Source: Escherichia coli
GTDB taxonomy: Bacteria > Pseudomonadota > Gammaproteobacteria > Enterobacterales > Enterobacteriaceae
Length of the DNA: 64,000 nt
Reading direction: 5' to 3' (one strand)
Assembly: GCF_045037415.1 (NCBI RefSeq)
Contig: NZ_CP173438.1
The notes beneath the pieces are model-generated. The model ran no database searches and was not told the origin of the DNA. It saw only the letters and a list, made by a program, of their open reading frames with translations. Made by a program: the position numbers and the translations under genes. Positions 19,406 through 29,106 of the stretch are shown piece by piece (position 1 is the stretch's first letter; every line of letters starts with the position of its first letter).

Positions 19406-22228
19406 ATGACGGCAGAGTACCTCAGGGACTGGCAACAACCGCGCCACGCAGTGGGGCGTGAAGGAACGGGGATCCCCGCTCCTGAATCCGCGCTTTCCTC
19501 CTGGCTGGATGCCTACCGGGCAGAGAACGAGCGCCGCCAGGAAATGGCTGATGCGGCGTTCTCAGCCACGCCGCTGGGCAACCTGATTAATAAAAGCCTG
19601 GACGCACAGGAAAAACAGGACAAAACCATCACACTGGCAGGAGACGCCAGAAAACAGGCACGTGGCGCGGTGGATGAAGCCATGGCCTCGCTGCGCCTGC
19701 TGCCGTCCTATCTGCGCGATCCGCTTATTCGCCACCTCTCCTTCCTGCGCAAAAAACAGGAAGCCGATCGCCGGAAAGGCAAAAAGAGCTGGCAGGCGGA
19801 ACGCTATGCACGCGGAACCCTGCGCAAAATATTCGAACGTCTGGATAGCACTGACGGACGCTGGCTGACACCGGGTTATCGCTCCCTTGCCGGACGCGAA
19901 CGCCTGGACGATTTGCTTTACCTGCCGCAGCTCAACAAACACCAGATACAGACGCTGGCCACCATGACGGCGGCGATGTTCAGCAGCACCTTCGAAAAAC
20001 TCTGCGATGGCTTTGGCGCGACCGATGGCGAGCTGACCATGGATGTAACCCTGAAGGCGTATCAGATGCTGGCCCGCATGGCGTTACACCTGCACGCCAT
20101 GCCTCCACATTATGACGCACTGACAACAGACAAAGACCGGAGGAACGAACCGGACACGGAGCTGCTGCCGGGCGCAATCCTTCGCCTGACCTGTGCGGAA
20201 TGGTGGAAACGCAAACTGTGGCTGTTACGTTGCGAGTGGAGAGAAGAACAACTCCGCGCCGCCTGTCTGGTTTCCAGAAAAACATCACCCTATCTGAGCC
20301 AGGACGCGTTAAGCGAGTTTCGCGCACAGCGCGAGAAAACACGCGATTTCCTGAAAAGTTTCATGCTGGAAAATGAAGACGGGTTCACGATTGATCTCGA
20401 GACAGTGTATTACGCGGGAGTAAGTAACCCGGTTCACCGTAAGGCAGAAATGATGGCCACCATGAAGGGACTGGAACTTCTGGCCGAAGCCCGTGGCGAC
20501 AAAGCGGTGTTTCTGACTGTCACCTGCCCGTCAAAATACCACGCCACAACGGAGAACGGTCATCCGAATCCCAAATGGAACGGGGCCACAATGCGCGACT
20601 CCAGCGATTACCTGGTTAACACGTTTTTTGCGGCGGTCCGCAAAAAACTGAACCGCGACGGCCTGCGCTGGTATGGCATCCGCACGGTGGAGCCTCATCA
20701 TGACGGCACCGTGCACTGGCATATGATGGTCTTTGCACATCCGGAAGAAATCGACACCATTGTGTCCCATACCCGCGATATTGCCATTCAGGAAGACCGC
20801 CACGAGCTGGGCAATGATATTACTCCGCGCTTTAAGGTGGAGTATGTCGACGGCTCAAAAGGCACGCCAACCAGCTACATCGCCACCTACATCGGAAAGA
20901 ACCTGGACAGCCGCGCCGTGGATGGCATCGACCCGAAAACGGGCAAGCCACGCGTGGACCACGAAACCGGAAAATCAATGGCCGAGAGCGTGGAGCGCGC
21001 CATCGGCTGGGCGCGCCTTCACCGGGTCCGTCAGTTCCAGTTCTTTGGCATCCCCTCCCGTCAGGTGTGGCGTGAACTGCGCCGCCTTGCCAGCCAGATG
21101 GCACGCAATCCGGAAGGCCCGCAACGGCTGAAAGATGATGCAATGGATGCGGTACTCGCTGCCGCCGATGCCGGGTGTTTTGCCACCTACATTGAAAAAC
21201 AGGGTGGCGTGCTTGTTCCACGCAAGGACTACCTGATTCGCACCGCCTACGACCTCGCAGATGAGCTGAACGATTACGGCGAACAGAGCGTACAGATTTA
21301 CGGGATCTGGTCACCACTCATCGGGGAATCCTCCCGTGTGTGCACGCATCCGGATAACTGGAAGCTGGTAAGACGTAAACCGGAAGCGGAAGACAGCGCC
21401 CGCGAAAATGGTTTTGACCTTCAGGGCGGCCCTGCCGCCCCTTGGACTCGTGGCAATAACTGTCCCCGTGTACAGGAAACGGACAACAACGGGACAGAAC
21501 AGCCGGAAGAACGGCCAGCACCGTGGCCGCAGCTCCCTGACGGCGTTGAAGTGAACGAATGGATGCGCTCACTGAAACGACACGAACGCCGGGCGCTGAT
21601 GCGTTCGCTTCGTGACAAACAGGCAAAAAACAGCAGCGATGAAATGCAGAGCTGGACACAGAGCCGCAAACAGCAGCGGCCTTTGCCTGATAACCACGAA
21701 TTACTCGCTAAAGAATGGCGGGAGTCTGCTGAATCTCTCGGCCTGCATATCGGTGAACAACAGATGCAGCACCTGTTACGGGGCGGCAGTCTGTACGTTG
21801 ACGGCAGCATCATTGCACCGCAGGGATTTGAAATTGTACGCAAACCGGATACCCGCCCGGACAGCCGAATCACGCAGCTCTGGCAGCGCCTGAGCCGTAA
21901 TCATGGCGTAAGCAGCACGGAGATCCGCCATAACCCGGTCGCCAGCTATCTGGCACAGCTGGGGGCATCAGACCCTGAAGCCGCCGCACGCCTGGCATCC
22001 ACACTTCAGCAGGGCCAGAACACCATGAAAACACCCGTTACCGTGCTTTCTGACATGCTGCGCGCCATCCGCGACGCAGAGCACGCACAGAGAATCAGTG
22101 AAACCACTGAACGCGCCAGCCGCAAAGCAGACCTGCTGCGGGGTGGCCTGACCAGTGGAAACAAAAAACAGACAGAAACGGGACTTACGAATCCCGTAAA
22201 TGAGCAAAAAACGCGCAGCGATATATGA
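19406..22228 (+). CDS. P2 gpA-type rolling-circle replication initiation endonuclease
   Basis: 940 aa; HxH metal motif in TVEPHHDGTVHWHMMVFAHPEE, typical of gpA/gene II Rep proteins; longer than P2 A as I recall it (about 760 aa). Confidence 0.8.
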   Translation: MTAEYLRDWQQPRHAVGREGTGIPAPESALSSWLDAYRAENERRQEMADAAFSATPLGNLINKSLDAQEKQDKTITLAGDARKQARGAVDEAMASLRLLPSYLRDPLIRHLSFLRKKQEADRRKGKKSWQAERYARGTLRKIFERLDSTDGRWLTPGYRSLAGRERLDDLLYLPQLNKHQIQTLATMTAAMFSSTFEKLCDGFGATDGELTMDVTLKAYQMLARMALHLHAMPPHYDALTTDKDRRNEPDTELLPGAILRLTCAEWWKRKLWLLRCEWREEQLRAACLVSRKTSPYLSQDALSEFRAQREKTRDFLKSFMLENEDGFTIDLETVYYAGVSNPVHRKAEMMATMKGLELLAEARGDKAVFLTVTCPSKYHATTENGHPNPKWNGATMRDSSDYLVNTFFAAVRKKLNRDGLRWYGIRTVEPHHDGTVHWHMMVFAHPEEIDTIVSHTRDIAIQEDRHELGNDITPRFKVEYVDGSKGTPTSYIATYIGKNLDSRAVDGIDPKTGKPRVDHETGKSMAESVERAIGWARLHRVRQFQFFGIPSRQVWRELRRLASQMARNPEGPQRLKDDAMDAVLAAADAGCFATYIEKQGGVLVPRKDYLIRTAYDLADELNDYGEQSVQIYGIWSPLIGESSRVCTHPDNWKLVRRKPEAEDSARENGFDLQGGPAAPWTRGNNCPRVQETDNNGTEQPEERPAPWPQLPDGVEVNEWMRSLKRHERRALMRSLRDKQAKNSSDEMQSWTQSRKQQRPLPDNHELLAKEWRESAESLGLHIGEQQMQHLLRGGSLYVDGSIIAPQGFEIVRKPDTRPDSRITQLWQRLSRNHGVSSTEIRHNPVASYLAQLGASDPEAAARLASTLQQGQNTMKTPVTVLSDMLRAIRDAEHAQRISETTERASRKADLLRGGLTSGNKKQTETGLTNPVNEQKTRSDI

Positions 22229-22304: not shown

Positions 22305-23264
22305 ATGAAAATTTGTATCGACGACGGCTCCACCAACATCAAGCTGGCATGGACTGAGAATGGCGAACGCCGCAACGCCATCAGCCCGAACAGCTTCAAG
22401 TCGGAATGGTCTGCGCCGTTCGGTGGCATGCAGCCCGCGAACTACATGCTTGATGGCGTGCGCTATGGTTTTGATCCGGTTAGCGATCGCTTTGTCCAGA
22501 CGACCGACACGCAATACCAGTACAGCGATGTGAATGTAATCGCCATTCATCACGCGCTGGTCAAATCAGGCATCACGCCACAGGAGGTGGATGTGGTTGT
22601 CACCCTGCCACTGAGCGAGTATTTCGACACAAACGCACAGCCGGACATGGCCAACATCAACCGCAAAAAAGCGAACGTTATGCGCCCGGTGGAATACCAG
22701 AACGGCGAAGCATTCACTATCCGTAACGTGCGGGTTATGCCTGAATCCATTCCGGCTGGCTTTAAAGCACTGGCTGACATGAGTCCGTTTGAATCCCTGC
22801 TGATTGTGGATTTAGGCGGAACCACGCTGGATGTGGCAAAGGTTCAAGGGCAACTGGCAGGTATCAGCCAGGTGTTTTGCGATCCACACGTAGGCGTTTC
22901 CCTGATGGCCGATGCCGTACTGTCGGTGATGGCCACTAACGGTATGCGCACCAGTCACCACATCGCCAATACCATTATCGAACATCGCCATGATGAAGCC
23001 TGGCTGCGCCAGCACATCCACAATGACGCGCATTACGCCAGCCTGATGGCGGTTATTCGTGAAAAGGAAGAAACACTGAAACAACGCGTGATCCGCTCGC
23101 TGGCGGTTTTTTCGGGTTACGGGCGGGTGATGGTTGTCGGTGGAGGGGCGGAGATTGTGGCACCCGCTATCCGCGAAGTCTGCGGAGTTAATGCGACTTT
23201 CATCGCGGACGGGGTGCCACAGTTTGCTCTGGTTAATGGGCTGTACGCAATGGACAAGGAGTAA
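22305..23264 (+). CDS. ParM/StbA-like actin-family partition ATPase
   Basis: MKICIDDGSTNIKLAW...ISPNSFKSEW...YSDVNVIAIHHAL...VVGGGAEI parallels recalled plasmid R1 ParM (MLVFIDDGSTNIKLQW...ISPNSFKREW...YSDVNVVAVHHAL...). Confidence 0.8.
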   Translation: MKICIDDGSTNIKLAWTENGERRNAISPNSFKSEWSAPFGGMQPANYMLDGVRYGFDPVSDRFVQTTDTQYQYSDVNVIAIHHALVKSGITPQEVDVVVTLPLSEYFDTNAQPDMANINRKKANVMRPVEYQNGEAFTIRNVRVMPESIPAGFKALADMSPFESLLIVDLGGTTLDVAKVQGQLAGISQVFCDPHVGVSLMADAVLSVMATNGMRTSHHIANTIIEHRHDEAWLRQHIHNDAHYASLMAVIREKEETLKQRVIRSLAVFSGYGRVMVVGGGAEIVAPAIREVCGVNATFIADGVPQFALVNGLYAMDKE

Positions 23265-23268
23265 ACCA

Positions 23269-23583
23269 ATGACGACACCAACCAGACGGATAAGTTTCTA
23301 TCTGAAGCCCGCCGCCGTCAAGAGTGAACAGGAGGCGTGCAATTACCTCGATAGCCTGCCAGCCTCCGAACGCAGCCGCGCGCAACGCGCGGCCTTTCTG
23401 GCTGGGCTAGCGCTCATAAAGCGCAACCCAGCATTTGCCTACTGGATGGCCGAATGGCCAGAGGACAACCTCCCCTTCAATACCGTTAGCATCAAGGAAA
23501 CATACCAGGATAATCAGCCTAGCGGAGTTGAATGCAATTTTTATAAAATAAAAAAGAATATTCAGACCTTATTCCCAGAATAA
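23269..23583 (+). CDS. ParR-like centromere-binding protein
   Basis: MTTPTRRISFYLKPAAV...LDSLPASERSRAQRAAFLAGLAL parallels recalled R1 ParR (RTIAFKLNPDV...LDSIPQGERSRLNRAALTAGLAL); directly follows the parM-like gene. Confidence 0.65.
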   Translation: MTTPTRRISFYLKPAAVKSEQEACNYLDSLPASERSRAQRAAFLAGLALIKRNPAFAYWMAEWPEDNLPFNTVSIKETYQDNQPSGVECNFYKIKKNIQTLFPE

Positions 23584-23666
23584 TCTGATAATTGTATGTG
23601 AACTAATAAAATACAGACCAACACATCATTCTGGCACCCTTGCTAACAGGGTGCCAATGTTTCAAA

Positions 23667-24509
23667 TCATGATGAAATTGCCGAAGTTTTTTTATCGTGC
23701 TGAAGTACCGCAAATGCCATTAAAACCTCAAGAGAATAGCGGCGATAATACTTAACAAAACCATAATAAAATACTCGGGATGCAGCAATACAAAACAAGA
23801 GAAGAAAACAAAAAGGTAACAGTCTGATATTTATATCTATTAAAAAGGATAGAAGGAGCAGGAACATAAGCAACCAGACTGAAGCGAGAAAAACAAATGT
23901 AATGTTTCTACAAAAACCATACAAAGCAACATAGTTTTGCATTTTCACCTGATGATTTTTAGAATGTTCATACACATAATGATAAGCAAGGCGAAAAAGA
24001 TCGCCCCTCAAGCCCTTACGTCGATATAGCGTAGATACAGAAAAAACATTTATATAACCATCTCGTATTTGCGGCCAAAAGACTTTAATAAGTATAGAAT
24101 GCAGTGTGGTTTTATGATGTTCTGCTTTATCAAAAGCTGATACAGGAAATAAAAAAACTCCACGAATAAAATTAACTATACTGAACTTAGTATTATGTCG
24201 TTTTATTTTCAGGGAGCTTCTTTTAGAAAACAGATAAATTGAAGGATACCCAAGTTTACTGTTCATGTATTTTTCAATTAAACAGGATGATAGAATAGAT
24301 ATGAAGTGACCTGAAATATATGATAGAACGATTAATACCACATATATAAATACACTTATTATTTCTTTATATTTCAGGATATGGTTAAGAATACCTTCTA
24401 TATAAACAGGGTTAATTTCAATAGAAAACAAAAAAAGGATAAACAGGAATAACCCACCTGGAATTAGATAGCCCAAAAAGTCATAAAATGAAAACGGATT
24501 CTGTGTCAC
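23667..24509 (-). CDS. Polytopic membrane protein (280 aa, at least 4 TM), unknown function; second gene of the AT-rich cargo operon
   Basis: GTG start with RBS aggggg; two N-terminal and two C-terminal hydrophobic helices around a basic ~130-aa loop; about 32 percent GC by eye. Confidence 0.6.
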   Translation of the reverse strand: MTQNPFSFYDFLGYLIPGGLFLFILFLFSIEINPVYIEGILNHILKYKEIISVFIYVVLIVLSYISGHFISILSSCLIEKYMNSKLGYPSIYLFSKRSSLKIKRHNTKFSIVNFIRGVFLFPVSAFDKAEHHKTTLHSILIKVFWPQIRDGYINVFSVSTLYRRKGLRGDLFRLAYHYVYEHSKNHQVKMQNYVALYGFCRNITFVFLASVWLLMFLLLLSFLIDINIRLLPFCFLLLFCIAASRVFYYGFVKYYRRYSLEVLMAFAVLQHDKKTSAISS

Positions 24510-24548
24510 ACTTCCCCCTGTGTTACTTGTAAATTAAAGGGTAAAACA

Positions 24549-25046
24549 TTATTTGTTTTTCCGTAAAGGATTAGCTTTCCATCTTCTTACTAACCATTCG
24601 AATTCTTGATATGTAGTATCCGAATTAATGCTTTCTCTGATTGCTTTAATTAATGGCTCGGCAATATCATATGTCTCTACAACTGTTGTGTAAGATGTTC
24701 TTTTTATCATTTTTTCATCATAAATACCTTCACGAATACTTACAGCAACTCGCTCGTAAAAATTTAAAATATATTGAAATTTTCGACGCTCGGCCATTTC
24801 TTCATCTGTTATTATGCAACCATCACAAGGAAAAACATAAGAACGAAATGATTTGCCTGAACGATGCACTTGTTTCAGGGTATGCAATGACTCTATATAT
24901 TGCATATCTTGCCGACTCTCAAAAAGAAAGTTGGCCGTTTGAGTTTTTTTTGCGGTACGCACATTGTAGATAATGGTTCCAATGGCAACCAAAACGCCAA
25001 GCAGAACAATAGCATTGCTGATGATTTGTAGTGTTATTGGGTTCAT
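24549..25046 (-). CDS. N-terminally membrane-anchored protein (165 aa), unknown function; first gene of the AT-rich cargo operon
   Basis: MNPITLQIISNAIVLLGVLVAIGTIIYNV (one TM) followed by a ~140-aa charged soluble domain; AT-rich. Confidence 0.6.
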   Translation of the reverse strand: MNPITLQIISNAIVLLGVLVAIGTIIYNVRTAKKTQTANFLFESRQDMQYIESLHTLKQVHRSGKSFRSYVFPCDGCIITDEEMAERRKFQYILNFYERVAVSIREGIYDEKMIKRTSYTTVVETYDIAEPLIKAIRESINSDTTYQEFEWLVRRWKANPLRKNK

Positions 25047-25057
25047 CCTATTTCATC

Positions 25058-25088
25058 CATAAAAAAGGCGGGGAGCAAATCCCCGCCT
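25058..25088 (-). terminator. Intrinsic terminator / candidate attenuator directly upstream of the 165-aa gene
   Basis: Minus strand reads ggcgggg-atttgct-ccccgcc then tttttt; the T run ends about 12 nt before the ATG at 25046. Confidence 0.55.
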
Positions 25089-25107
25089 CATTAGAGGTCA
25101 ACGTAGC

Positions 25108-25143
25108 TTAGAAACCATCAAATTCATCATACATTTTTTTCAT
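25108..25143 (-). CDS. Candidate leader peptide (11 aa, MKKMYDEFDGF)
   Basis: Strong SD gaggggg 5-6 nt upstream of the ATG; stop codon 18 nt before the terminator stem. Confidence 0.35.
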   Translation of the reverse strand: MKKMYDEFDGF

Positions 25144-25195
25144 ATCAACCCCCTCATAGAAATCATAACCACGTTTTGTGGTTTTTGTGACGTAT

Positions 25196-25224
25196 AAACT
25201 ACATCAAAGGCAAGCCACGGTCAA
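25196..25224 (-). promoter_or_regulatory. Candidate sigma-70 promoter for the leader and membrane-protein operon
   Basis: Minus strand: ttgacc, 17-bp spacer, tagttt; followed by the palindrome ccacaaaacgtgg before the leader RBS. Confidence 0.3.
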
Positions 25225-25769
25225 ATATATAGGCATGCTTACCTGCACAAAAGTGCACAAATTTGCACAATTTTTTTGAACGACTTTTTACCCTTCCGGC
25301 CCGCATGGCGGCTGGATCCGTCAAGGATCCGTGCGTGCACAAAAAAACGCGCTTTTTCTGCGCGCAGGTGACGGGGGAACAGCCCGCGTTTCAGGGGGTA
25401 AATAGCATTCCCTGAACGATGTCGCAGAGACACAACAGAATGGCCATATTTCTCACGCTGAGCATGAAAAAGGCGTGAGGGCTTTTGATTTGATGGGGTG
25501 AAAGGTAAGGCCGTCAAAATCGCACTGAGGCAGCGAGAACATGCAGTCAACGCGGTGGAATTGCGTAAGAGTCTGACCGTCGATGGTGGCGATAAACTGG
25601 AAGGCGTCGTGAAATTATCTGATTGATACAGGAGCTGGAGAGCCGGGGCATAAATTTTTTATGCCCCGGCGAAGCAGCAGACAAGCGAAGCGCGTCAGCG
25701 ATACGGCACCTTGCCGACCATACTTCATAAGTGCAAAATACGAGCAAAGAAATCAATGGAGGCTGTCTT

Positions 25770-26294
25770 ATGGTCATTAATTACAAGCAGTTAAGAGAAA
25801 AACGGGAGCAGGTAAAGGAGAGCTTTCGCCGCAATGAAGATCTGACCCCGCTTGTACGCCTTGCCCAGGGCATTGTTGATGCTTATGAAATCTCGCTGGA
25901 GCTGCCATCACAGACCTGGACAGATAGCGACGGTAATCGCCAGCATTACGTTTCATGCGGACTGGAAGCAGCCGAAGGATTTCGCAGAATGCCTTTATCC
26001 CAGATCCCTGCCGCTACCCCCAAAGCACGGGGCAGCAATGATGAGCGAAAACTGACTTTTAGTATTGAAACGGTGGTTGACGACACACCTGGCGAAGTCG
26101 CGTTCGTGCACACTCCTGTTTCGATCGCAATGTATAACGATGAAATACAGGTTCGCGTTAATAATAATATCGTGCCACTTAAAGAAGGTAATTCACCCTA
26201 CACCACCGTTTGTGAAGCCATTCAATATTACGTTCTCTCTGAAATTGATAATCTCAAGCCTGACGGCACCCAGAAAATGGTTCAACTCTGGTAA
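25770..26294 (+). CDS. Hypothetical protein (174 aa), convergent on the portal gene
   Basis: ATG 25770 with RBS ggagg; MVINYKQLREKREQVKESFRRNEDLTPLVRLAQGIVDAYE...; no motif recognised. Confidence 0.45.
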   Translation: MVINYKQLREKREQVKESFRRNEDLTPLVRLAQGIVDAYEISLELPSQTWTDSDGNRQHYVSCGLEAAEGFRRMPLSQIPAATPKARGSNDERKLTFSIETVVDDTPGEVAFVHTPVSIAMYNDEIQVRVNNNIVPLKEGNSPYTTVCEAIQYYVLSEIDNLKPDGTQKMVQLW

Positions 26295-26308: not shown

Positions 26309-27355
26309 TCACGGGGCTGTTTTTTCATCAAGAAGAGCATAAGAGTTAAAACGGATCACCTCTTCGCCAAGCCAGTCATTGATGTGCTTCATAGCCTCCA
26401 TAACGGGCATCAGCTCGTTAATTGCGTAAACCCGCGCTGCCTTCTCCACATCGCCAAACGCACTTTTTTCGCCCGGCATCGCCCCCATCAGTTGCGGCGG
26501 AACGCGGTGCGCAGCCAGCACATCATCACGGGATGCCGCCTTAACATTCATGAATTCATCTTTTGCGGTGATCTGCTGGAACGGCAAAATTTGCACCCCC
26601 TCTTTGCCCCCGTTGGGCGCATGAATGAGCACGTTTTTAAACGCACCACCACCACGTGCCCCCTGTAGCGTTTCTTTCAGGGAGTCCATGCTTTCGCGGT
26701 TTACCTGCGCTGCACCGATGTAGATGATGCACCCGGCGTGGGATCCGTTGTCGTAGTACAGTTTTCTGAACATGTCCGCCGAATGAGAAAGGCTGGCCGA
26801 GAGTAATGCGCCAAGATATTCCGGCATGCCGTAGATTTCCTGGTTAATATCCGGATTCATCAGGTGGCACACTTTGCCAGGACGAAACTGAAACGCGTCC
26901 TTGCCATCCTGCACATACCACCATGATTCAAGATCGCTTCCGCGTCGCATGTATTTCGCCAGGGCGTGCCGTAATTTAAGCGGTTCGCCGAGCATATTGC
27001 TTCGAAGCTCAAGGAATGCGTTACCGAACACAAACCAGTCCAGCGCCAGCGCCGAGAAATCCTGCCGGGAAAGCAGCGGGTGCGGGATGTAGCAACCGAG
27101 TAATACATTGCGCTTAAAGTAAAGCGCAGACTGATGCCAGGACGTTTGCCGGGCTGCTCTTGCCAGACCGTACCAGTCCACCGGGGTTTCATACCACCGC
27201 CCGTTATCAGCACAGTACATATTGTCCAGCAGGTCATGCCCGGTCAGGCGATAAGGACCATCAAATGTGAATGCACTGAGCGATGATTCTTTCCTGAGCG
27301 CATCAGCGAGATCAATGCGTGAACTCATGCGCACTTTTTTATTTTTTCTGCTCAT
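26309..27355 (-). CDS. Portal protein (P2 gpQ-like)
   Basis: 348 aa (P2 Q is about 344); ATGA-coupled downstream of the large terminase, as in the P2 QP operon. Confidence 0.85.
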   Translation of the reverse strand: MSRKNKKVRMSSRIDLADALRKESSLSAFTFDGPYRLTGHDLLDNMYCADNGRWYETPVDWYGLARAARQTSWHQSALYFKRNVLLGCYIPHPLLSRQDFSALALDWFVFGNAFLELRSNMLGEPLKLRHALAKYMRRGSDLESWWYVQDGKDAFQFRPGKVCHLMNPDINQEIYGMPEYLGALLSASLSHSADMFRKLYYDNGSHAGCIIYIGAAQVNRESMDSLKETLQGARGGGAFKNVLIHAPNGGKEGVQILPFQQITAKDEFMNVKAASRDDVLAAHRVPPQLMGAMPGEKSAFGDVEKAARVYAINELMPVMEAMKHINDWLGEEVIRFNSYALLDEKTAP

Positions 27356-29106
27356 CAGAACTCCATAACCATGAAACGCTCGTTTTCTCCTTCGCCGCCA
27401 ATTGGTTCGTTAATGACAGCAAGCATGGTTGCCCACGCAAGGTCGCCGTGGCTGATCCCCCTCGCGCGGTCCGTTTCGTAAGTGATAAAGCCGCCCGGTG
27501 TTTTCACCTTACGCACGGCGTTAAAGGCCGCGACCAGCTCGCGTTCGGCGCGATCGTATTCCCACCGCCCGGCACGCATTATTTGCAGCATTTTCAGTAC
27601 CAGCGACCGTTTTGATGACAGCGTGAAGGTGTACGGAATAGCAGCAGGGAAAAACCGCTTCACTATCTGATAAACAGCCTCCCCGTTCCCGCCCGTCACA
27701 TCAATGCCGATGTGTTCCACGTTGTAGCGACACGTGAACTCTTCAATGACTCTGGCCTGTTCTTCAAACTCCAGCCCCTGAACGCGTCGCGTCTCCACCG
27801 TTCGAAAACGGCCGCCAGGAACAGCCGGAGGAACCACCACGGACACAGCGCCGCTGTCGCCGTTGCCACTACTGCCGTTTGCGTCATACCCAATCCATAC
27901 CGGACGATTCCCCATCGGGCGGGGAGCAAAAGGTTTCCAGTCTTTCCAGTCGTCGTATCCGTCAACACCGCAGCCAATCAGGATATTCAGGTTAAATGCC
28001 GATTCCCCTTCGCGGACAAACTCACACATATAGAGATTGAGGAACTCGTCTTCGGTGTTTTCATCACGAATTTCGTCGATATCGGTGTGTTTCCAGCCGT
28101 GATTAACCACATCTTCCAGCGTGACAATTTGCCGCCACGTCCGGTCAGGGCAGATAAGCCCATTATGCAGCGTTTTCCAGTCCACAGAAAAACGCTGGCG
28201 TTTATGCGAGGCCTTTTTCTCGTTCCAGCGGTCGCCGTTCCAGTAGGCGTATGCCTCGTGCGTTTCGGTGGATGGCGTGGAGAAGTAGGTGCGCCGCAGT
28301 CCGCTGAGGGTTGCCATAGCGCCAGCCACCTTGCGCAGTTCAGCAAAGCGACTGACCCAGAAAAATTCATCAAAATAAAAATTGCCCGTATAGGACTGTG
28401 CCGACGCAGCAGAAGTGCCGAGAAAATGCAGCTCTGCGCCGTTGGAGAGGATGATTTTATCGCCCCCTTTCAGCTCCACATCAACTTCAGCCGCGGCCTT
28501 CTGAATAATGCTTTTAAACTGGAACGCCTGACGACGCGACGCAGACAAAAAAATCTGGTTACGCTGGTAAGGTTGCGCCACATCGTCACGCAGCGCCATC
28601 AGCAGTGCTTCCTGTGCAAAATACCAGGTCGCCCCAATCTGTCGGGATTTCAGGATCATCCTGTTACGTATCCCGGCTTCCCTGCAAAGGGTCAGGGAGT
28701 CAAACCAGCCCCGCTGATGCCACTCCAGCCTGCTGATGATTTTTTCCCGCAGTGCGGCAATCTGTTCCGGCGTGAAATGATTTTTGAGTTTTTTCGCCCG
28801 GCCTTTCTTTCCTGCGGCCATCACATCCGGCTGGCCATCATGCAGCTTTTTAAGCTGCCGGGTCAGCAGGTCTATTTCCTTAAAGTCACCGCCTGTTTTA
28901 TTCTGTTTTTCAGTAAGCTGGATGAGGCGCGCATCGATGGACTGCGTGACACGCTGCACGGGTGGCGTTTCATCCCACTGGTCACGTTTTTTCCACGCAT
29001 AAATCGTGTTCGGGTTTATTCCCATCAGACGTGATATTTCTGCGGGCGGATAACCCTGCCAGTAAAGTTGCCGCGCACGCTGGCGCACAAAAGCGTCCTG
29101 AATCAT
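27355..29106 (-). CDS. Terminase large (ATPase) subunit (P2 gpP-like)
   Basis: 583 aa; Walker-A-like KSRQIGATWY; divergent from the O-N-M-L operon. Confidence 0.85.
   Translation of the reverse strand: MIQDAFVRQRARQLYWQGYPPAEISRLMGINPNTIYAWKKRDQWDETPPVQRVTQSIDARLIQLTEKQNKTGGDFKEIDLLTRQLKKLHDGQPDVMAAGKKGRAKKLKNHFTPEQIAALREKIISRLEWHQRGWFDSLTLCREAGIRNRMILKSRQIGATWYFAQEALLMALRDDVAQPYQRNQIFLSASRRQAFQFKSIIQKAAAEVDVELKGGDKIILSNGAELHFLGTSAASAQSYTGNFYFDEFFWVSRFAELRKVAGAMATLSGLRRTYFSTPSTETHEAYAYWNGDRWNEKKASHKRQRFSVDWKTLHNGLICPDRTWRQIVTLEDVVNHGWKHTDIDEIRDENTEDEFLNLYMCEFVREGESAFNLNILIGCGVDGYDDWKDWKPFAPRPMGNRPVWIGYDANGSSGNGDSGAVSVVVPPAVPGGRFRTVETRRVQGLEFEEQARVIEEFTCRYNVEHIGIDVTGGNGEAVYQIVKRFFPAAIPYTFTLSSKRSLVLKMLQIMRAGRWEYDRAERELVAAFNAVRKVKTPGGFITYETDRARGISHGDLAWATMLAVINEPIGGEGENERFMVMEF

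Follow-up and report, generated by a model that had tools for sequence, protein, structure and literature searches.

Prophage genes for membrane exclusion or abortive infection include rexAB of lambda, sieA and sieB of P22, and the lactococcal Sie2009-type genes; RexB has four transmembrane (TM) helices, and the Sie2009-type proteins consist of about 160 residues with one N-terminal TM helix. Leader-peptide attenuators and arrest peptides, with which a leader described below is compared, are represented by tnaC, mgtL, and toiL-topAI. In P2-like phages, the hotspot between gpA and gpQ carries anti-phage systems (Rousset et al. 2022, Cell Host Microbe 30:740; PMC9122126), and 3 of 8 additional systems cloned from it protected against an 8-phage panel; non-defence cargo, such as parMR and the cytolethal distending toxin, is also found there (PMC9122126). 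Table S5B of that study lists a gene pair as system 3 'DUF4760', described as '1 TM in protein 1, 4 TM in protein 2', with 1102 occurrences as the third most frequent cargo of the hotspot (PMC9122126). The pair analysed here is identical to that entry, its sequences being present in Tables S5A and S5B, and is absent from Tables S2A and S2B of validated or additionally tested systems. Thus, the module that an initial annotation of this DNA had put forward as undescribed was already catalogued; the catalogue entry treats the pair as one system, with no mention of the micro-ORF or the terminator reported below. In the literature searched, we found no later paper that names DUF4760 in the context of the P2 hotspot and no later test of membrane systems from this hotspot. 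Among the anti-phage hotspots of E. coli prophages, this one is the best studied; the pair ranks among its commonest cargo sets and reaches the pandemic lineage ST131.

The window, a stretch of 64,000 nucleotides from the Escherichia coli contig NZ_CP173438.1 (assembly GCF_045037415.1), contains a P88-type prophage of the P2 family, in which a low-GC island of 1.66 kb lies between gpA/parMR and the portal gene. The features of this region are as follows.

19406..22228, left flank: replication endonuclease gpA
22305..23264, left flank: ParM
ending at 23583, left flank: ParR-like protein
23584..25243, no strand: variable cargo island of the gpA-portal hotspot, delimited by its GC content of 0.34 and by homology edges
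23633..23655, no strand: 8-bp hairpin read from the sequence, GGCACCCT / AGGGTGCC, in the gap where the 4-TM and parR genes converge
23667..24509, minus strand: four-TM inner-membrane protein (hereafter designated the 4-TM protein), predicted, 280 residues, GTG start, Shine-Dalgarno sequence GGGGGA
24549..25046, minus strand: DUF4760 protein, 165 residues, ATG start, with a predicted N-terminal membrane anchor and cytoplasmic all-helical domain
25061..25089, minus strand: intrinsic terminator, GAGGCGGGG-loop-CCCCGCC followed by T6, from the terminator scan
25108..25143, minus strand: micro-ORF MKKMYDEFDGF-stop, 11 codons, with the strong Shine-Dalgarno sequence GAGGGGG, in the conserved leader
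25162..25191, minus strand: promoter-like site before the micro-ORF, GTCACA-18-TATGAT, a weak hit of the consensus scan
25731..26294, right flank: ORF of unknown function, phrog_5091
26309..27355, right flank: portal
27355..29106, right flank: terminase

The positions and lengths of the two minus-strand reading frames, and the flanking gene A, parMR, and portal genes, are all as the initial annotation had given them. The slot that it recognized as the P2 cargo site is the gpA-gpQ hotspot of P2-like phages, for which anti-phage cargo is on record (PMC9122126), and the low GC content that it estimated by eye is real, at 34% for the island against 53–58% for the flanks (DUF4760, 0.349; 4-TM, 0.317; gpA, 0.577; parM, 0.547; portal, 0.529; whole window, 0.515). 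Homology to phages of the same P88-type backbone drops out on the left at about 23414–23465 and returns on the right at 25243/25244, and, as judged by these alignments, the edges of the island are genuine recombination edges. Other cargo occupies the slot on an otherwise identical backbone that retains parMR; because the island is swapped on such a backbone, it is tied neither to parMR nor to core phage functions, and a functional tie of the cargo to parMR was ruled out. A reading of both genes as lysis genes was likewise rejected, since they lie outside the late operon and match no holin, endolysin, or spanin PHROG. The hairpin between the convergent 4-TM and parR genes might possibly stop transcription in both directions; it has no T-run, and the terminator scan gave no call there.

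The upstream protein had been assigned to no known family, which proved wrong, because it matches Pfam DUF4760 (PF15956) over its full length (E 2.1e-34; residues 12–156 on model positions 2–141 of 141); the Pfam scan gave nothing besides this family, and RefSeq names the protein a DUF4760 domain-containing protein. A single hydrophobic helix (residues 8–26) is followed by RTAKK, in agreement with the topology of one N-terminal TM helix plus a soluble domain that had been claimed, and the charge distribution predicts an N-out/C-in orientation, with the soluble domain in the cytoplasm. The only likeness found for the predicted DUF4760 model is to the EP domain of the plant EDS1 family (EDS1, PAD4, and SAG101), whose helical fold is present in the model, in a superposition that takes in the membrane helix. 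Sequence identity to the EP domain is 7–10% (about 9%), and a search of the DUF4760 profile against PDB sequences returned no EDS1-family chain up to E 10. The predicted likeness is thus to be taken as a fold resemblance that does not imply common descent. EDS1-family EP domains occur in the PDB with TIR-derived ligands, that is, pRib-ADP in 7xey and 8zf0, and ATP-APDR in 7xjp (ADPr-ATP in 8yn0). In the literature searched, no report of an EP domain outside plants was found; an EP-like fold, if confirmed, would tie a bacterial protein family to a domain otherwise reported from plants.

The 4-TM protein belongs to a large family that has no Pfam entry. Its GTG start fits the homologues, as its N-terminus MTQNPFS aligns with their start MNQNPFS. 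Hydropathy places helices at about 12–30, 50–73, 206–224, and 229–250, with which the AF2 helices concur, and the loop of residues 78–193 contains 20 K/R against 6 D/E, so that the claimed arrangement of four helices around a basic loop was borne out; all the conserved polar residues lie on the predicted cytoplasmic face. This protein, too, had been said to have no known family, against which stands a match to the PADLOC Csx27 model PDLC01605 (E 1.1e-5, 23.9 bits, residues 6–244), strongest in the N-terminal segment NPFSxYDFLGYxIPG. Ten diverse relatives were compared with the same model, of which 7 match (E 1.3e-8 to 1.8e-5); 3 also match a second type VI-B model, 'tm_4'. Because the match is weak and lies between hydrophobic proteins, the 4-TM protein may be regarded only as a remote, though repeatable, relative of Csx27. 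Makarova and colleagues are said to have proposed in 2019 a DNA-channel role for the Csx27 family at large. No cas13b, CRISPR array, or other cas gene was found near the 4-TM gene or its homologues in the contexts examined.

Neither protein matched a validated defence model in PADLOC. Besides Csx27, PADLOC-DB v2.0.0 gave only PDC-S35 for the DUF4760 protein (E 0.014) and PprPIWI for the 4-TM protein (E 0.056); no NCBIfam model was matched by either protein, and PADLOC, NCBIfam, PHROGs, and Pfam together yielded only DUF4760, PHROGs of unknown function, and the weak Csx27 match. The profiles of both families, when compared by sequence with all PDB chains, returned nothing below E 1. Kinship of DUF4760 to the 1-TM protein of phage AC1 and to the RT-nitrilase-associated 1-TM protein was also considered and rejected, with hhalign probabilities of 0.4% and 0.7%, respectively.

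Tentatively, and at somewhat less than even confidence, we favour the reading that the island consists of two independent single-gene morons that came to lie side by side within a single E. coli lineage of P88-type prophages, with a terminator-gated leader, and that each gene probably protects the lysogen at the inner membrane. The first cassette would comprise a promoter, the micro-ORF, the intrinsic terminator, and the DUF4760 gene. Because the space from the terminator to the DUF4760 start is too short for a promoter, the synthesis of both DUF4760 and the 4-TM protein would depend on transcripts that continue past the terminator, and expression would therefore probably be kept low and released conditionally; the terminator could also merely end a separate micro-gene and leak. 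The DUF4760 protein would be held in the inner membrane by its N-terminal helix, with the EP-like helical bundle facing the cytoplasm, and the 4-TM protein, as a putative membrane protein of the Csx27 superfamily, would turn its conserved polar residues toward the cytoplasm. Each gene, acting alone, would shield the lysogen from other phages by conditional membrane perturbation or infection exclusion. The context makes an anti-phage role plausible, as it combines an anti-phage hotspot, swapped cargo, AT-rich mobile genes, and a CRISPR-associated relative of the 4-TM protein. If the genes do protect against phages, each would stand for a new family of single-gene membrane defence, and one of the two families would have a CRISPR accessory protein as a relative. 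The micro-ORF with its terminator offers a testable handle on how prophages silence potentially harmful cargo.

That the cargo is not anti-phage is somewhat unlikely. It would then serve the host or the prophage, for example, in ST131-type envelope or stress physiology, in the timing of induction or lysis, or in maintenance together with parMR. Such a role would agree with the presence of non-defence cargo in the hotspot, with the lack of defence-model matches, and with the envelope morons and lipoproteins of unknown role that stand beside solitary DUF4760 genes. Moreover, the island occurs in 296 of 5426 complete E. coli genomes (5.5%), including ST131, always on the chromosome, and is nearly clonal (at least 99% identical in 275 of the 296), a distribution that could reflect hitch-hiking with a successful prophage. 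However, both genes shift among unrelated prophage types and slots, which is the pattern typical of accessory competition genes.

The pair had been proposed as a two-gene module, and in its strict form, with both genes acting as one sensor-plus-effector membrane system of abortive infection or superinfection exclusion and mutually required, this explanation is improbable. The genes are indeed co-oriented, with the 4-TM start 39 nt past the DUF4760 stop and no terminator between them, their junction is kept down to about 87% protein identity (locus L125), and Rousset et al. list them as a single system. The partner survey, in which HMMs of both families were applied to 124 loci and the partner was sought within 6 kb, speaks against such mutual dependence. 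Both genes were found together only in copies of at least 96% identity and in L125 (~87%), so that the co-occurrence of the pair is limited to the near-identical E. coli island and this one locus. On viral contigs, the DUF4760 partner was absent within 6 kb from all 51 diverged 4-TM loci and the 4-TM partner from all 45 diverged DUF4760 loci (96 of 96 in all), and the partner was also absent from the genome loci L002–L013 and from distant genomic contexts. DUF4760 by itself fills the same hotspot in other genera; in further P2-like phages of Enterobacterales (L008, L080–L093), it is alone as cargo in the interval from cos/portal to gpA. Elsewhere, it adjoins an integrase (L012) or tail-fibre genes (L009). 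Solitary 4-TM homologues, whose neighbours include integrase and NinB, lie just upstream of an integrase gene, within the nin region in lambdoid prophages, or in an integron-like array, and more distant homologues stand alone amid unrelated chromosomal surroundings. Furthermore, where the DNA is homologous to the solitary DUF4760 cassettes, the match begins at the ATG of the micro-ORF and breaks off at the stop codon of DUF4760. Collectively, at the level of gene content and homology boundaries, these comparisons demonstrate that the two genes are independent single-gene cassettes, each of which is a solitary prophage moron elsewhere. Independent cassettes call for a different test design, in which each gene is examined separately and with the leader present or removed.

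The homology to the distant cassettes L094, L008, and L096 begins exactly at the micro-ORF ATG, and, as judged by these limits, the mobile unit is the micro-ORF, the intrinsic terminator, and DUF4760. The micro-ORF and terminator that head DUF4760 seem to be previously undescribed. The 'native upstream region' to which the initial annotation referred contains both of them, directly before the DUF4760 start codon. Upstream of the promoter-like site, whose class was no more numerous in the scan than in shuffled sequences, a TTGACC −35-like hexamer is found at a slightly greater distance, and the aligned position of the solitary cassettes shows TTGACT-N16-TAATTT with an ATTACC-N5-GGTAAT palindrome. 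The micro-ORF precedes DUF4760 in 55 loci with 30 distinct leader sequences, among which its last six codons vary almost solely at synonymous positions (E, 13 GAA and 17 GAG; F, 20 TTT and 10 TTC; D, GAT/GAC; G, GGC/GGT/GGA). From this substitution pattern, the micro-ORF can be concluded to be translated.

The terminator ends 14 nt short of the DUF4760 ATG, and the distance from T-run to start is 10–25 nt across variants. Every leader variant has a hairpin and a T-run, and the stems differ in sequence, namely, GGCGGGG/CCCCGCC, GCGGAGCC/GGCTCCGC, CGGGGCC/GGCCCCG, and TCGGAGGC/GCCTCCGA. Compensatory changes were counted at 3 of 5 consensus pairs, a formal covariation count that is modest because the MAFFT alignment of the terminator is poor. 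The terminator follows the micro-ORF stop by 21–60 nt in DUF4760 leaders, and the interval from stop to hairpin ranges from 0 to ~60 nt across contexts. In MFE folds of the P2-hotspot clade, the leader Shine-Dalgarno sequence pairs with a conserved ACCTCT just 5' of the terminator, a motif that is absent from other clades; no convincing or strong competitor of the terminator stem appeared in the leader folds. Rfam gave nothing at the gathering score for the leader or within 23500–25800. The geometry of classical attenuation found no clear support, as no convincing antiterminator was seen and the spacing is variable. Identity of the terminator stem with the P2 cos site was rejected, as cos (GGCGAGGCGGGGAAAGCAC) is absent from the window with up to 3 mismatches allowed and the likeness is partial.

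The DEFDGF motif recurs well beyond DUF4760. In many phage contexts that lack DUF4760, micro-ORFs ending in DEFDGF-stop and followed by hairpins head other phage genes, and in nearly all the unrelated contexts a hairpin follows the DEFDGF stop codon, sometimes abutting it. The motif also occurs in tandem (MKDEFEWCDEFDGF and MFDEFDGFDEFDGF), at the C-terminus of a longer ORF (L313, 179 codons), and near the N-terminus in L160. The recurrence of this peptide motif in many unrelated phages suggests a general mechanism, which would have been overlooked because the micro-ORF is too short for annotation; nothing relevant on DEFDGF was found in the literature searched, and tblastn with a 21-residue micro-peptide, a query that is too short or is filtered, gave no match. 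A wider proposal, which we consider rather doubtful as a whole, is that the DEFDGF-COOH micro-ORF and hairpin constitute a widespread, undescribed device of enterobacterial phages that heads accessory cassettes, either as a nascent-peptide switch that lets polymerase past the terminator only upon a disturbance of translation, such as phage infection, or as a mimic, acting in trans, of the acidic tail of a protein; in that case, DUF4760 would be the bacterial, membrane-anchored counterpart of the EDS1-family EP receptor domain, turning a cytoplasmic signal into membrane-level abortive infection.

Alternatively, the micro-peptide itself, acidic and aromatic with a Phe-COOH end, might be the active product, with a protein of the host or of a phage as its target in trans, the hairpin as a mere terminator and DUF4760 arising from leakage. 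The occurrence of the motif without DUF4760, in tandem, and at either end of other proteins would fit a short linear binding motif, and the probability of this alternative is nevertheless low, because the whole stretch between the ATG of the micro-ORF and the stop codon of DUF4760 travels as one cassette, the DUF4760 start lies closely behind the T-run in every variant, and the hairpin after the stop in nearly all unrelated contexts suits a cis-acting role.

A counter-defence function, in which DUF4760, through its EP-like domain, would sequester an immune signal of nucleotide type, or in which a host immune effector would be damped by the Csx27-like protein, in either case for the protection of the prophage or its progeny, is highly improbable: it could draw on repression of Cas13b interference, the only known activity of Csx27 (bioRxiv 10.1101/092577), and on the TIR-derived ligands held by EDS1-family EP domains in PDB complexes, but no cas13b, TIR, or cyclase gene is present in the island or its neighbours, a membrane anchor and terminator gating would be unusual for signal sponges, and the similarities are remote.

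Returning to two independent cassettes, probably protective and headed by a terminator-gated leader, we compared the locus with the known systems. Like RexAB, SieA/SieB, and the Sie2009-type proteins, the products are small, predicted inner-membrane proteins encoded by accessory genes at prophage moron positions. The likeness to RexAB is one of architecture only. The PADLOC scan showed no sequence similarity to any of these exclusion proteins, and neither protein matched RexA or RexB in it, although the release may not cover RexAB. We know of no counterpart in RexAB or the Sie-type systems of the micro-ORF and terminator of DUF4760. The 4-TM protein shares about four predicted TM helices with Csx27, the membrane accessory protein of type VI-B1 CRISPR-Cas13b, but is ~80 residues longer and has a ~110-residue cytoplasmic loop. 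In contrast to the EDS1 family, whose members have a lipase-like domain and form a heterodimer that binds a TIR-made nucleotide, DUF4760 is a protein of 165 residues with a TM helix in place of the lipase-like domain and with no known partner or ligand. The 2TM + 1TM + TIR system of the P2-like phage AC1 occupies the same hotspot and has small 1-TM and 2-TM proteins that are thought to be membrane effectors (Rousset et al. 2022), whereas the island contains no TIR gene. Unlike the leader-peptide attenuators, the leader of DUF4760 has no antiterminator pairing that we could find, a variable distance to the hairpin, no Rfam match, and a motif that is used also in tandem and at protein C-termini. 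In common with tnaC, mgtL, and toiL-topAI, it has a short translated ORF, preceded by a strong Shine-Dalgarno sequence and followed by a terminator that polymerase has to pass before the downstream gene is expressed, and, as in the leader-peptide attenuators, the peptide sequence itself, beyond its codons, is conserved to the stop.

In the best-supported reading, the cargo island (23584..25243) consists of two independent accessory cassettes, one for the DUF4760 protein (protein 1) and one for the 4-TM protein (protein 2), which are stacked in a slot prone to cargo swaps and are transcribed together downstream of a micro-ORF and a terminator. As the initial annotation had described, two minus-strand ORFs of 165 and 280 aa lie between gpA/parMR and the portal gene, and the flanking features confirm this position.

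Features of the island, its leader, and its flanks
19406..22228, P2-family replication endonuclease gpA
22305..23264, ParM
ending at 23583, ParR-like gene
23667..24509, minus strand, protein 2 ORF (280 aa, GTG start)
24549..25046, minus strand, protein 1 ORF (165 aa)
25046, minus strand, ATG start codon of DUF4760
25089..25061, minus strand, intrinsic terminator, GAGGCGGGG-loop-CCCCGCC-T6
25143..25108, minus strand, micro-ORF MKKMYDEFDGF-stop
just upstream of 25143, minus strand, Shine-Dalgarno GAGGGGG
25731..26294, phrog_5091 ORF, function not known
26309..27355, portal gene
27355..29106, terminase

The GC content, put at about 32% by eye, drops to 0.28–0.36 over 23500–25000 and averages 0.34 in the island, against 0.577 for gpA, 0.547 for parM, and 0.529 for the portal gene. 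Hydropathy and AlphaFold models also supported the proposed topology, with a single N-terminal TM helix in protein 1 and, in protein 2, four TM helices (at least four had been claimed), a pair at each end of a basic loop (20 K/R versus 6 D/E). The region is 100% identical to that of E. coli P88-type (Xuanwuvirus-like) phages and prophages, and was carried by 296 of 5426 complete E. coli genomes, ST131 among them, always on the chromosome. Between gpA and the slot lies a ParM/ParR-type partition pair (22305..23583), which occurs in about one-quarter of P2-like phages (Rousset et al., PMC9122126) and hints at plasmid-like maintenance. The 4-TM gene and parR converge on a perfect 8-bp hairpin lacking a T-run, GGCACCCT / AGGGTGCC, at 23633..23655. 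The conserved backbone at the right-hand end of the variable slot (~25245–25285, minus strand) bears AAAAAAATTGTGCAAATTTGTGCAC(T/A)TTTGTGCAG, made up of three TTGTGCA-type repeats; P2-like phages of several genera keep this element independently of the cargo, and it could serve as a binding site for a protein where the hotspot ends.

To analyze the co-occurrence of the two genes, we built HMMs for both families and ran them over every locus that either protein had retrieved from viral contigs and genomes. The pair was limited to the near-identical E. coli island and one metagenomic copy (4-TM protein identity, 87%; DNA identity, 93.7%) retaining the 39-nt spacing. Among the viral-contig loci, DUF4760 was missing within 6 kb in all 51 with 4-TM homologues of at most 47% identity, and the 4-TM gene was missing in all 45 with DUF4760 homologues of at most 90% identity. 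The pair is not conserved as a system, the two-gene module proposed initially is not supported, and the two genes are very probably independent of each other. Solitary DUF4760 genes (76–90% identity) were the sole portal/cos–gpA cargo in Pectobacterium, Klebsiella, Kosakonia, and other P2-like prophages, and also adjoined an integrase at a prophage end; DNA homology between the window and solitary DUF4760 cassettes stops at the DUF4760 stop codon (24550–24568), and that with more distant cassettes starts exactly at 25143. In Serratia-type prophages, DUF4760 has a Bro-N gene on one side and tail-fibre genes on the other. Downstream of it, next to the tail genes (L009, 5585–6696; L102, 6529–8033; L107, 6543–7503), come either arrays of two or three further 1-TM ORFs, paralogous and of ~160 aa (phrog_36918), or paired lipoprotein genes (phrog_890), a neighbourhood that is a cluster of envelope morons.

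Solitary 4-TM homologues (GC, 0.22–0.40) were located directly 5′ of integrase genes or in the lambdoid nin region, and more distant ones were lone genes flanked by unrelated operons, members of an integron-like array of small cassettes, or neighbours of an integrase. Locus L131 (5187–12659) contains a 34%-identical homologue among ~15 small co-oriented genes, including those for NADAR, RraB, a nucleotidyltransferase, and acetyltransferases, and its intergenic sequences, which contain GTTAG/GTTAT motifs, resemble integron attC sites, suggesting that the 4-TM gene may also travel as an integron cassette. Where a solitary 4-TM gene precedes an integrase gene (L002, L021, L031, L032, L036, L044, L048, L050, and L052), the 45 nt that follow its stop codon hold a conserved element, CC(C/G)GGGTGCAGCC(G/A)GG-(N)-AATGGAGAA, positioned just 5′ of the next start codon even with differing flanking genes; this element may form a hairpin that regulates the integrase/excisionase region.

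The layout of Shine-Dalgarno sequence, micro-ORF, terminator, and DUF4760 was kept in every context examined, down to ~40% protein identity. Across 30 distinct leaders, (D/E)EF(D/E)(G/W)(F/V) is preserved in the final six codons with synonymous variation (GAA in 13 and GAG in 17; TTT in 20 and TTC in 10; GAT/GAC; GGC/GGT/GGA), so the micro-ORF is translated and selection acts on its peptide. The terminator hairpin is likewise retained with at least five differing stem sequences. Since there is no space for a promoter between the T-run and the DUF4760 start codon, DUF4760 and, here, also the 4-TM gene need read-through, and we consider that the terminator probably gates the downstream genes. 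No convincing antiterminator was found in the leaders and no Rfam family matched them; in the P2-hotspot clade, the leader Shine-Dalgarno sequence has a potential pairing partner in a conserved ACCTCT immediately 5′ of the terminator. In solitary cassettes (L080–L099), a promoter-like TTGACT-N16-TAATTT occurs ~100–130 nt 5′ of the micro-ORF, its hexamers enclosing an operator-like palindrome, ATTACC-N5-GGTAAT, which is degenerate in the window (~25195–25225). In two contigs and in two orientations, a 1.35-kb insertion sequence (L018, 4070–5443, also fetched as L078 and L190; L197, from ~6056), with a 374-codon ORF and terminal repeats CATAAGCGCTAACTTAAGGGTT, has entered the terminator stem GGGGATTTGCTCCCC, duplicating the stem target and splitting the micro-ORF from DUF4760. 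This element resembles IS186, which favours G4-N-C4 targets.

Micro-ORFs of this kind were not confined to DUF4760. When IMG/VR was scanned for DEFDGF-stop coding sequences, at least 120 stretches came up, against a rough chance expectation of ~10 based on a guessed collection size. Among the 80 loci examined (L134–L213), 44 matches were scored as ORFs of at most 20 codons, some of the others being the same micro-ORFs read from an upstream GTG/TTG, and DUF4760 lay downstream in ~20. The majority were not beside DUF4760; they were spread across enterobacterial phages and prophages, fell into several unrelated sequence classes, and in nearly all cases had a GC-rich hairpin 0–25 nt 3′ of the stop codon. 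In some loci the motif is tandem (MKDEFEWCDEFDGF, MFDEFDGFDEFDGF).

Classes of DEFDGF-stop sequences
MKDEFDGF-stop, then palindrome GTGACATGTCAC and a terminator
MKKKRMNDEFDGF-stop, then a hairpin and an ORF of 98–175 aa
MFSLRKFDAEDVDVFDEFDGF-stop, in T4-like phages of about 170 kb
tandem forms such as MKDEFEWCDEFDGF-stop, many copies in Xenorhabdus genomes
DEFDGF motif at the C-terminus of longer ORFs

One class adjoins gene 47 of T4-like Enterobacter phages. Another occupies the same hotspot in the same P88-type backbone, parMR included (L167, 8232–9957; L157; L205; corresponding to window 23465..25243), where the cargo, oriented opposite to the window's cassette, consists of a small ClpX-zinc-finger-like ORF, an overlapping MKKKRMNDEFDGF-stop micro-ORF, a hairpin, and a soluble protein of 174 aa to which neither a PHROG nor a family was assigned. 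Scanning a single genome for each prokaryotic species gave 60 matches (L254–L313) versus ~35 expected by chance; the ATG-initiated micro-ORFs were almost only from Enterobacterales, in particular Xenorhabdus (multi-copy), with one further copy on a contig labelled Nitratidesulfovibrio (L298). The product may be a nascent peptide acting in cis to control the hairpin, or an acidic peptide with a terminal Phe acting in trans, which would resemble the C-terminal tails of SSB-type proteins.

The initial annotation recognised no known family in either protein, but protein 1 belongs to Pfam DUF4760 as a full-length member (E = 2e-34; also phrog_2284). Its confident AlphaFold model (pLDDT 93) had EDS1 as the top Foldseek match (probability 0.99, TM-score 0.58); three further EDS1 chains scored 0.54–0.56, and all remaining matches at most 0.31. 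The match has to lie in the helical EP domain, which sits in complexes with TIR-derived nucleotides in several of these PDB entries. Because Pfam and PDB-chain profile searches gave no sequence similarity to EDS1, and because the superposition takes in the membrane helix, we regard the EP-like predicted fold of DUF4760 as a resemblance in fold and a lead; our literature search found no report of bacterial EP-like domains.

Protein 2 and 94 relatives matched no Pfam family, and its model (pLDDT 89.6) had no specific match among solved structures. The family is large (1113 cluster representatives at E ≤ 1e-3) and occurs across many bacterial phyla, its members being annotated as hypothetical throughout. 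Its invariant or near-invariant polar residues (D10, H68, S74, E79, H177, E181, H186, K189, N192, R201, K253, and E261) flank the helices before TM1, after TM2, before TM3, and after TM4, on one face that is predicted to be cytoplasmic from the charge distribution. The PADLOC model for Csx27, a membrane accessory protein of type VI-B1 CRISPR systems, matched protein 2 over nearly its full length (E = 1e-5) and also 7 of 10 diverse relatives (E = 1e-8 to 2e-5), and we therefore accept that the two are, by these profile matches, remotely related.

The gpA–gpQ region of P2-like phages is an anti-phage hotspot (Rousset et al. 2022, PMC9122126), as the initial annotation had stated for this slot. 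Four features agree with an anti-phage role: the location in this slot, the mobility of the genes, their AT-richness, and their remote Csx27 link. Against it, cargo of other types is also housed in the slot, and most of the cloned hotspot systems were not positive in Rousset's panel (PMC9122126). We advance the whole explanation including this role tentatively, as falling somewhat short of an even chance. The initial observation is confirmed and its interpretation supported in part: the island is real and abundant cargo, yet not undescribed as had been suggested, since both proteins are identical to those of system 3 in Table S5B (1102 occurrences; '1 TM in protein 1, 4 TM in protein 2'; PMC9122126). 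The pair is absent from the table of validated or additionally tested systems in that study, and a literature search found no paper on DUF4760 in the P2-hotspot setting. The present analysis adds the split of the pair into two independent cassettes, the family assignments of both proteins, the leader micro-ORF and terminator with a motif recurrent across phages, and the EP-like fold predicted for DUF4760.
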